Positions 29,100 to 34,855 of a DNA stretch of 38,194 bases are shown here, piece after piece. The stretch lies in the IMG/VR virus record IMGVR_UViG_2925914267_000004. One strand, 5' to 3'. The first letter of the stretch is position 1. The number at the start of each line of letters is the position of its first letter. The notes under the pieces were generated by a model. It made no database searches and had not been told where the DNA came from. It saw only the letters and a list, made by a program, of their open reading frames with translations. This DNA is from a virus (Duplodnaviria; Heunggongvirae; Uroviricota; Caudoviricetes). The translations under genes were made by a program, and so were the position numbers.

Positions 29100-29107
29100 G
29101 TGTTAAA

Positions 29108-29602
29108 TCAGAACAGCCCTTTAACGGAGCTGGCCGCGCTGTTAAGGGATGATGTGACCTTATCTTTGAAGCCGGACAGCATATCACTGAACGATGAGGA
29201 TTGCAGGCGTTCCCGCAAATCCTCATCGCAGCGTTCAAGAGTCAGTGAAAACTCTATCTTTTTCGCCTTGCCGTAGCGATCAAACTCGGAACGGGTCGTA
29301 TTCGTTTCAGTCAGTACATACATGCCGTAAATCTGCCCGACACCATCAATCAGAGGCCAGGGGCGTCCTGTATATGCCTGCGTGGTCAGCAACGAAAGCG
29401 ACACTTCGCCACCTGTAATTTCAGGATAAAGCACGCCGGAAAGCACGATGCGATCATCACCTGCGCCGATATACTGCCAGCTTGCTGAACGGTTAACGCG
29501 TTCATTTTTCACATGCCGCCAGCTTTTGTTTTGCTGTAACTGCTGATGCGGCAATGTGCGCAGCTCAAAAACAAACATGCCGTAGATCATCATCATGGCC
29601 AT
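29108..29602 (-). CDS. U: Tail protein U (P2 gpU-like)
   Basis: 164-aa ORF; MAMMMIYGMFVFELRTLP...GAGDDRIVLSGVLYPEITGG parallels P2 U. Confidence 0.8.
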   Translation of the reverse strand: MAMMMIYGMFVFELRTLPHQQLQQNKSWRHVKNERVNRSASWQYIGAGDDRIVLSGVLYPEITGGEVSLSLLTTQAYTGRPWPLIDGVGQIYGMYVLTETNTTRSEFDRYGKAKKIEFSLTLERCDEDLRERLQSSSFSDMLSGFKDKVTSSLNSAASSVKGLF

Positions 29603-29608
29603 GACTCC

Positions 29609-33002: not shown

Positions 33003-33515
33003 TCAGCCAAGCCCGAGTGCGGAACGAATGCGGTCAGGCACAATGTCCTTGCCGTCCTTCCGGTAGATGTGGTTCAACAGGTCGATTTCCCACAGCGGGC
33101 GATCGTTAACGCTCAGCTTGTAGTAGGTGTTTTTGACAGCGTAAGTGTGTGATGTGGCTTCGCCCTGCTTGGCTTCCCCCATATCAATTTCCGTCACACG
33201 CCCGCGCATCTCGATTTCATACAGATCGCTTTCTGCATCGGTGTAGTATTCACCCGCAAAACGCAGTAGCGTGTCGTCAATCGTGCCGCCATACTTCAGG
33301 AACAGCTCACGAACTGCGCCCCCCATGACAAAGCTCGCATCAAGCGCGGAGTCGTCCAGACCGAGATCAATACTTACCGCACCCATCATGCCACCACCCC
33401 GGTAGCTGTCGGTTTTGCGCGTCAGCTTAGGCAGAGTGACGGACGTCACCTTACCCACTTCGTTTTCACCATCCACAAACAGCGTAAAAAAGCGAAGATG
33501 TTTTGGTACAGCCAT
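33003..33515 (-). CDS. FII: Tail tube protein FII
   Basis: 170-aa ORF; VTLPKLTRKTDSYRGGGMMGAVSIDLGLDD parallels P2 FII. Confidence 0.88.
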   Translation of the reverse strand: MAVPKHLRFFTLFVDGENEVGKVTSVTLPKLTRKTDSYRGGGMMGAVSIDLGLDDSALDASFVMGGAVRELFLKYGGTIDDTLLRFAGEYYTDAESDLYEIEMRGRVTEIDMGEAKQGEATSHTYAVKNTYYKLSVNDRPLWEIDLLNHIYRKDGKDIVPDRIRSALGLG

Positions 33516-34699
33516 CAGGCACCTCCCAGCACCGCAAATGCGGGACCAAAGAATTCATCGGTAAACGTCTGGTAAAGCTCCATGTCTTCCAGTGGCGGAA
33601 CGGGCGTATATTTGTAGCGAATACGCACACGCCCCTGACGTAAATCCGTGGTGCCGTTATCCACCACGTCATACCAGCACGACGCCCCAATCAGTTTCCC
33701 GGCTGTCACCAGCGAATCCAGTTTTGCCCTGACGGCACTGATAACATCTTTCACGTTCGCAGGCGTCAGTGGACTGTCGATGGTTTCAAACTGCGCTTCC
33801 GCAATTGAATCAGCCAGCACCTGTGCGGTTCGGGTATACACCTCAAAGATGTAGGCGTTCGTTTCCGGTGTGCGGTTGCCCCAGAAGCGGAACCCATTGC
33901 GACGAATAATGGTCGTGATTTCTTTGTTATTGAGGCTGTTGGCATCACTGTCTTCGGCCTGCAACGACCAGAACACATGCCTGGACATTCCCAGCACATT
34001 TTTGACCGGAACGTTGGACAGTGATTTGTGCCATCCCTGCTCATGGTCAATGTACGCACGAAGGCCGCACGCATAGGCAGGCGCGGGGAACGTTTCGTTT
34101 TCGCCACTTTTTGGGTTGTAGGCGATGAAGTCCGGCCATAAGAGCATCACTTCACGTTCGTTGAATTTCTGGCGGTAGGTAATCGCCTCAGCCATCGTGT
34201 TACAGCCGTGACATGAGGCATACACAAACGCGCGCAGCTTACCCGCAATCACGCACAGGGATTTTGTCACCGCCTCCGTGTCCAGCTCCGGCGCGGCCAG
34301 AATACGCGGACGGTATCCGATGCTTTCATCCTGCTCTGCAACAAGCAGCGCATACATCCCCGTATAGCTGCCGTCAGATTCAGAACCACCGATAACCAGT
34401 TGATCCTGCGTCTTACCGCCTTCTTCTTTGTGTTCAGCCACGCGAACGACGATCACCTTTGTGCTCACCTGGTCTGCGATGGCCTTAAGCGCACGATAAA
34501 GCGTCCCCGTTGTCCCGCATTTTCCCAGCACGTCATTGACGCGGGTCAGCAGTGTGGGCTTGTTCAGCGGGAACAGCTCCGCATCCGCATCATCCGCCGT
34601 TGCCACGATACCGATAACGCTGGAATCAACATCATTAATCGCTGTTACCAGGTCGGTACTTTCCGTGACACGGGCACCATGAAAACGAGTTTCACTCAT
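33515..34699 (-). CDS. FI: Contractile tail sheath protein FI
   Basis: 394-aa ORF; DADAELFPLNKP, KLRAFVYAS, GWHKSLSNV, RRNGFRFWGNRT and YTPVPPLED match P2 FI. Confidence 0.9.
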   Translation of the reverse strand: MSETRFHGARVTESTDLVTAINDVDSSVIGIVATADDADAELFPLNKPTLLTRVNDVLGKCGTTGTLYRALKAIADQVSTKVIVVRVAEHKEEGGKTQDQLVIGGSESDGSYTGMYALLVAEQDESIGYRPRILAAPELDTEAVTKSLCVIAGKLRAFVYASCHGCNTMAEAITYRQKFNEREVMLLWPDFIAYNPKSGENETFPAPAYACGLRAYIDHEQGWHKSLSNVPVKNVLGMSRHVFWSLQAEDSDANSLNNKEITTIIRRNGFRFWGNRTPETNAYIFEVYTRTAQVLADSIAEAQFETIDSPLTPANVKDVISAVRAKLDSLVTAGKLIGASCWYDVVDNGTTDLRQGRVRIRYKYTPVPPLEDMELYQTFTDEFFGPAFAVLGGA

Positions 34700-34855
34700 A
34701 GCTTCAGCCCCTTATATCCGTTAAATGATTCGGCAACAATCATCACCCACCACGCGCGTAATCTCACCCCTGCGCCGTTCTCCCGCCACGGCGACAACAA
34801 AAAGCAGTAACCCCCTCCGCACGCACATGCGACCATGCCGCACAGGGAGGGAAAG

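Follow-up and report, generated by a model that had tools for sequence, protein, structure and literature searches.

The subject of this report is the block of tail genes FI, FII, E/E', T, and U in IMGVR_UViG_2925914267_000004, a Caudoviricetes virus record of 38,194 nucleotides (nt). The window is this whole stretch, and all coordinates refer to it. Genes were identified from a listing of open reading frames together with Pfam (cut-off, 25 bits), and strands are as read there. The block lies on the minus strand, from 29108 to 34699; its neighbors, a DNA invertase gene on one side and the D and ogr genes on the other, are on the plus strand.

The leftward F operon begins with FI (tail sheath; 33515-34699; Pfam sheath domains), whose N-terminal 120 residues are 96.7-97.5% identical to those of phages P88 and phiSM. 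It continues with FII (tail tube; 33003-33515; Phage_tube, E 7.3e-46); gpE with the overlapping −1 frame E' (together 32409-32947, with E at 32573-32947); T (tape measure; 29609-32422; PhageMin_Tail, E 4.6e-58); and, as its last gene, U (tail protein; 29108-29602; Phage_P2_GpU, E 5.5e-39). T likely starts at ATG 32422, in a reading frame open up to GTG 32458; its P88 counterpart, gp45, is 2808 nt. In length and position gpU equals P88 gp44. The match of E to the tail-chaperone family Phage_TAC_7 is weak (E 4.8e-4; 20.5 bits, under the cut-off), and the two frames were followed by translation: E' is open from about 32675 to 32409, where the P88 annotation also puts E and E' pieces. All of the block genes are full length and correspond to P88 genes.

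Beyond FI, on the plus strand, lie D (34856-35965; Phage_GPD) and the Ogr/Delta zinc-finger late activator gene (36008-36268; 86 residues; Ogr_Delta, E 5.1e-14). The likely D start, ATG 34856, is preceded by the ribosome-binding site GGGAGGG and agrees with the D start of P88 and phiSM; the frame is open also from ATG 34835. Upstream of the block, the baseplate genes V, W, J, and I are on the plus strand (Pfam), and a plus-strand open reading frame of 700 residues (23232-25334) occupies the position of H, aligned under the annotated tail-fibre gene of P88.

In the annotated P2 record, FI, FII, E, E', T, U, D, and ogr are all co-directional, and the pF transcript is annotated from FI through D. 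The window block is therefore inverted relative to P2, as the original prediction had it; reading frames, Pfam matches, and the P2 record agree on this. The breakpoints also fall where they had been placed: at a convergent junction on the left (29080-29107), and in the divergent FI-D gap of 156 base pairs (bp) on the right (34700-34855). The two phages are alike in gene set, in FI-to-U order, and in the overlapping-frame layout of E and E'. In P2, however, the block runs in one direction with H, G, D, and ogr, the stop codon of U overlaps the start of D, and the operon ends with D; in the window the block faces the other way, and D is equipped with a separate ribosome-binding site and a putative promoter.

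This order is not peculiar to the window. Close relatives at the nucleotide level were sought by megablast of window positions 27500-36500 against phage genomes, and 13 phage records proved collinear over at least 80% of that region. Eight of the 13 could be placed by taxonomy or phage name, and all eight belong to Xuanwuvirus or its P88-like phages. The annotations of P88 and of Citrobacter phage Shae_phiSM (phiSM) give the same order and strands as the window: invertase (plus), U-T-E'-E-FII-FI (minus), and D (plus). Both phages are 94-98% identical to the window over 27500-36500, with a near-identical FI-D gap, and both match the rest of the window phage at about 95% identity over 80%. For P88 in particular, coverage is 89% of 27500-36500 (at 94.4%) and 80% of 1000-25000 (at 95.4%). 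What the window has and these two phages lack is an IS600 element in the tail-fibre assembly gene and a different tail-fibre segment.

In the practice of the International Committee on Taxonomy of Viruses, the genus-level criterion for phages is a nucleotide similarity of about 70% over the genome. On nucleotide similarity, then, the window prophage is a P88-like member of the genus Xuanwuvirus (Peduoviridae).

Phages with this order are functional. P88 is inducible and plaque-forming, with a burst size of about 65 and a contractile tail (PMC5285337); phiSM forms plaques, lysogenizes K-12 strains, and is infectious by transfection (PMC6456863); and SEN4 is a produced, active phage (PMC5261728). 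Since the orientation is shared by P88, phiSM, and SEN4, it is not the anomaly that the original prediction had suspected.

The FI-D junction was also used as a blastn query at lower stringency. FI and D match at a single, divergent place in Senquatrovirus SEN4, in the Reipivirus Klebsiella phage ST16-OXA48phi5.4, and in the Novemvirus Enterobacter phage phiT5282H. In P2-type Peduovirus records, by contrast, the FI half and the D half match on opposite strands. The Felsduovirus RE2010, like P2, has the canonical order; an expectation that Fels-2-type phages share the inversion was dropped in view of the RE2010 record. Burkholderia P2-like phages are tabulated with a canonical D-U-T order, in a paper that does not discuss tail-gene inversions (PMC3091744).

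Wider sampling drew a sharp boundary. FI is divergent from D in all 80 of the IMG/VR relatives taken as the best 80 of 500 relatives of D. A profile search for D across one genome per GTDB species identified 60 divergent loci plus one disrupted locus, in which D is about 60% or more identical to that of the window, and 19 canonical U-then-D loci, in which D is at most 53% identical. A neighbour-joining tree of D contains one branch that parts all 61 divergent sequences from all 20 canonical ones. Among the 140 clade loci examined (80 from IMG/VR and 60 intact ones in genomes), none has the P2 orientation. Furthermore, 1106 of 5426 complete Escherichia coli genomes carry a copy, counted where collinear over at least 80% of 28400-36300. 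Hosts of the divergent order include Salmonella, Citrobacter, Klebsiella, Enterobacter, Serratia, Erwinia, Pantoea, Pectobacterium, and Brenneria, as well as Xenorhabdus, Photorhabdus, Providencia, Morganella, Yersinia, Hafnia, and others; in all, the clade spans more than 25 bacterial genera. Across it, the first 12-19 codons of D cannot be aligned.

This orientation is thus the norm, fixed throughout a large branch of functional P2-like phages; it is neither damage nor an assembly error. Three options had been offered for it: rearrangement in a decaying prophage, a different natural arrangement, or misassembly. The second is the one borne out, and the other two fall away.

How, then, might D be expressed? 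The FI-D gap contains an Ogr-type activator dyad, TCTCCCGCCACGGCGACA (34779-34796; centre, 34787.5), of the form TGT-N12-ACA with one deviation. An exact search for TGT-N12-ACA finds no match in the gap; the site emerged once TCT was allowed and the window's P-O gap was compared. The FI-D gap holds TCTCCCGCCACGGCGACAACAAAAAGC, of the same form as the P-O gap site TCTGGCCGTTTTCTTACAACAAAAGC at 14884. Exact matches to TST-N12-ACAACAA number three in the window (one in the FI-D gap, one in the P-O gap, and one inside O), against a chance expectation that we estimate at about 0.15. Two of the three fall in the only two divergent late-gene gaps.

The dyad is conserved. Among 58 distinct gaps from relatives, 54 keep T[GC]T-N12-ACA, 65-79 nt from the FI ATG, and the remaining four have one mismatch to it. 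Substitutions among 42 close variants are concentrated in the N12 spacer and leave the half-sites untouched. The position of the dyad is kept too: measured along the FI strand, it begins 97 nt before the FI ATG in the window, 90 in SEN4, and 91 in phiT5282H. Phages with the canonical order give corresponding offsets, 91 nt for the annotated pF activator site of P2 and 90 nt for RE2010. An activator dyad some 91-97 nt ahead of the FI ATG is common to P2 and the window.

The flanks of the dyad were compared in 31 non-redundant gaps (at most 80% identical), anchored on the dyad centre and scanned at offsets 12 to 79. Besides the half-sites, the conserved columns are a CACG block and, on either arm, a −10-like A-N-N-A-T. 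On the FI side (minus strand), NANNAT begins exactly 44 nt from the centre in every one of the 31 gaps. On the D side it begins at 44 nt in 23 gaps and at 45 nt in three more; at any other offset, NANNAT occurs in at most six. In the window these hexamers are GATGAT (34739-34744, minus) and GACCAT (34831-34836, plus), each 44 nt from the centre, and they would serve as the −10 elements of pF and of a D promoter, pD. GACCAT with its flanks (GCGACCATGC) is invariant in all 42 close variants. Transcription is predicted to start at about 34732 (minus, pF) and about 34843 (plus, pD).

Several features of a P2-type Ogr-dependent promoter are present: a −10-like hexamer at a fixed distance, no good −35 element, and an encoded Ogr/Delta protein. 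(Indeed, a σ70 consensus scan returned no promoter in the FI-D gap.) In P2-type promoters TGT-N12-ACA is centred about 55 nt upstream of the start; the gap has TCT-N12-ACA at the pF offset. From the far edge of this dyad, the counterpart of the P2 pF activator site, it is about 60 nt to the start of D, which has a conserved −10-like element at the right distance. The original view of D as severed from the FI late promoter is accordingly not supported.

P2 offers a precedent. Its record annotates a single "activator binding site; pO, pP promoters", flanked by the transcription starts of P (56 nt away) and O (55 nt away), so the use of one Ogr site for two divergent promoters is established in the family. 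The window's own P-O gap contains the comparison dyad TCTGGCCGTTTTCTTACA (14884-14901), where the hexamers are TAATCT (minus strand, 44 nt) and CATCAT (plus strand, 45 nt). The P2 pP/pO region and the FI-D gap (34700-34855) share a design, in which one dyad stands between two divergent late genes with symmetric starts or −10 elements; in P2 transcription begins 55-56 nt away from the site in each direction, and in the FI-D gap the −10-like hexamers begin 44 nt either side. By analogy with pP/pO, the FI-D gap would act as a bidirectional late promoter region, with pF leftward and pD rightward. P2 has a shared-site region only at P-O; the clade appears to have a second one at FI-D, a proposal based on site and hexamer geometry.

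At the left breakpoint, a hairpin at 29071-29096 (extended stem, 29058-29109) has a 10-bp GC-containing stem and T runs on either strand. It folds at −16.7 and −16.8 kcal/mol (z of −4.0 and about −4.6), and none of 200 shuffled sequences folded as well. On this folding evidence it is a bidirectional intrinsic terminator, ending both the invertase transcript and the leftward FI-U transcript.

The adjacent gene (28462-29079, plus; Pfam Resolvase and HTH_7) encodes a serine invertase of the Gin/Hin type, and its DNA is about 92-95% identical to the gin region of phages Mu, D108, and SfMu. A pair search located two inverted gix-like sites of 26 bp, none being expected by chance: one inside H (24364-24389, minus), which differs by two mismatches from the other, beside the invertase gene (28409-28434, plus). 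Here a megablast match to Mu overlaps a feature annotated "G-segment boundary" in the Mu record. Between the sites, the segment at approximately 24390-28408 carries alternative fibre-tip and chaperone genes on opposite strands (those on the minus strand at 27743-28366 and 27264-27749), and in places it shares 92-96% identity with Mu, D108, and SfMu DNA. Shared with the Mu G segment are a Gin-like invertase, inverted gix-like sites, and alternative fibre/chaperone pairs. The invertase is part of this neighbouring tail-fibre switch and not of the inverted FI-U block; the block has no gix sites and a fixed orientation, and the two are unconnected. As the original prediction held, no hix-like site marks the breakpoints; nor is the invertase responsible, since the window contains no third gix-like site, with up to three mismatches allowed. 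Nor did the suggested search for short inverted repeats (over 25000-36600) find any that pair the block ends, 29090 with 34780; it returned weak, chance-level pairs and the terminator hairpin, and nothing else.

Together, these results suggest the following history. A single ancient inversion would have turned around a segment comprising the pF activator site, pF, and FI, FII, E/E', T, and U, with breakpoints just upstream of the activator site and at the U/D boundary. The clean split of D proteins into inverted and canonical sets fits one such event, and because the dyad keeps the P2 pF offset from the FI ATG, promoter and site presumably moved together with FI. The inversion would have left D directly beyond the far side of the pF activator dyad, where it later gained a ribosome-binding site and a −10 element at the correct distance; the unalignable first codons of D are consistent with a rebuilt 5' end. 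One dyad in the gap would then drive FI-U leftward and D rightward, as does the single pP/pO site in P2. Transcription would probably read through from D into ogr, keeping all of the tail genes under Ogr-dependent late control, and the leftward operon would end at the bidirectional terminator between the invertase gene and U. Binding of Ogr at the FI-D dyad, like read-through from D to ogr, is proposed on the basis of the arrangement of sites and genes.

Taken as a whole, a lineage-fixed inverted block coupled with a shared-site bidirectional late promoter is the best explanation, with a probability of roughly 0.85. Its observed basis comprises the gene order, shown to be fixed across the clade and to occur in functional phages, and the conserved geometry of site and hexamers. 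The fuller evolutionary proposal is favoured with more reserve: that one inversion defines the clade of Xuanwuvirus, Senquatrovirus, Reipivirus, Novemvirus, and related prophages; that the two-way action of the Ogr dyad is what allowed it to be tolerated; and that the FI-D gap became a second promoter of the pP/pO style.

Several observations weigh against this explanation. In the window, as in part of the clade, the left half-site reads TCT, not TGT. Of the two hexamers, GACCAT on the D side is the weaker, and five of the 31 relatives have none at 44-45 nt. The direction of change is inferred by comparison only, P2, RE2010, the Burkholderia phages (PMC3091744), and 19 other genomes all being canonical. 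Finally, a palindromic CGCGCG-TAATCT (34753-34764) could instead be a rightward −10 element upstream of the dyad. That element, or else a constitutive or early σ70 promoter, could give D an independent promoter within an order that is nevertheless typical of the lineage. TAATCT (34759-34764) does resemble the P-side −10 element of the P-O gap, and GACCAT makes a poor −10. Nonetheless, conservation in mirror symmetry at exactly 44 nt on each arm is difficult to account for unless the site is used both ways, the σ70 scan of the gap came back empty, and CGCGCG is palindromic, the same motif appearing in both FI-side and D-side spacers of other members. An independent D promoter is thus considered unlikely.

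The remaining alternatives concern the orientation itself, and each meets the same comparative evidence. That an assembler placed the block the wrong way round has nothing specific to recommend it beyond block ends that lie in short intergenic regions; the two junctions contain no repeats able to mislead an assembler, and identical junctions occur in independently sequenced phages, in all 80 IMG/VR contigs, and in the 1106 complete E. coli genomes. Its probability is negligible. A recent, private rearrangement in a decaying prophage, with D uncoupled from late expression, could appeal to real decay elsewhere, since IS600 splits the tail-fibre assembly gene (25502-26765). The block genes, however, are full length and match those of P88, and an order common to plaque-forming phages and to so broad a clade must long predate the window prophage; this account is very improbable. 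Equally so is a programmed, reversible switch in which a Gin-like invertase or another recombinase flips the tail block. The invertase gene does abut the left breakpoint, but both gix-like sites flank the tail-fibre segment, and the block ends have neither a further site nor paired repeats. Moreover, no invertase is annotated at this junction in SEN4, the Reipivirus phage, or phiT5282H, which all share the order, and the other orientation is absent from the clade loci examined.

Other features of the window and its relatives deserve mention. Within E, a run of seven A residues (ATT AAA AAA ATG; approximately 32671-32677, minus strand) stands exactly where the −1 frame of E' opens, and may be the slippery site at which the conserved E/E' tail-chaperone frameshift takes place. 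The third TST-N12-ACAACAA match, TCTGGCCTTTGCGGCACAACAA (15394-15415), lies inside the scaffold gene O; neither arm shows a −10-like hexamer at 43-46 nt, and the match may reflect chance or an internal element. Genes S (20237-20881) and V (20878-21459) overlap, in contrast to the separate V operon of P2, and a search of 17000-25400 for an activator dyad of the pV type produced nothing convincing. The genes from O to G may form one very long late transcript, or V may have a promoter with a divergent site.

The IS600 copy measures 1264 bp and is 99.8% identical to copies annotated "IS3-like element IS600". It interrupts the plus-strand tail-fibre assembly gene (start, 25337) and is flanked by a 3-bp CAT target duplication. 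With the element and one CAT taken out, the frame is restored, and its C-terminal part matches the P88 chaperone. This insertion is a real mark of prophage damage, and hints at a Shigella or E. coli host.

Among the relatives, the one disrupted locus (Klebsiella sp. WOUb02) has an FI that aligns from residue 146 and a D that aligns from residue 73, about 850 bp apart. Symbiopectobacterium purcellii carries at least three divergent junctions in one genome, one of them with a truncated FI. A region 97-98% identical to the window occurs in an assembly labelled as the Gram-positive "Vagococcus sp. WN89Y" (NZ_JBQPOM010000071.1), which probably is contaminated or mislabelled. The phiSM virion was described by transmission electron microscopy as a siphovirus with a long non-contractile tail (PMC6456863). 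Against that morphology, its deposited genome (OR565851) is that of a Peduoviridae member with a homologue of the window sheath, labelled "late control gene D protein" and situated beside an annotated major tail tube gene.

The gene order itself is already known, and so not new: it is present in public annotated genomes of characterised phages. No text on the inversion or on a bidirectional FI/D promoter was found in the P88, phiSM, and SEN4 papers, in a 2026 survey of P2-like prophages, or in the Xenorhabdus xnp1 paper (the survey by Casjens and Grose lay outside this scope). A bidirectional FI/D promoter may therefore be undescribed, and would be a natural extension of the P2 pP/pO design.

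For the family, the orientation of the tail block is an ordinary lineage feature, not a sign of decay or misassembly, and a marker that sets P88-like phages and related genera apart from P2, 186, and Fels-2-type phages. It is relevant wherever P2 synteny around FI, D, and ogr is taken for granted in annotation pipelines or in satellite/helper work. Moreover, an operon inversion of 5.7 kilobases can be neutral if the dyad of the activator site serves both directions.

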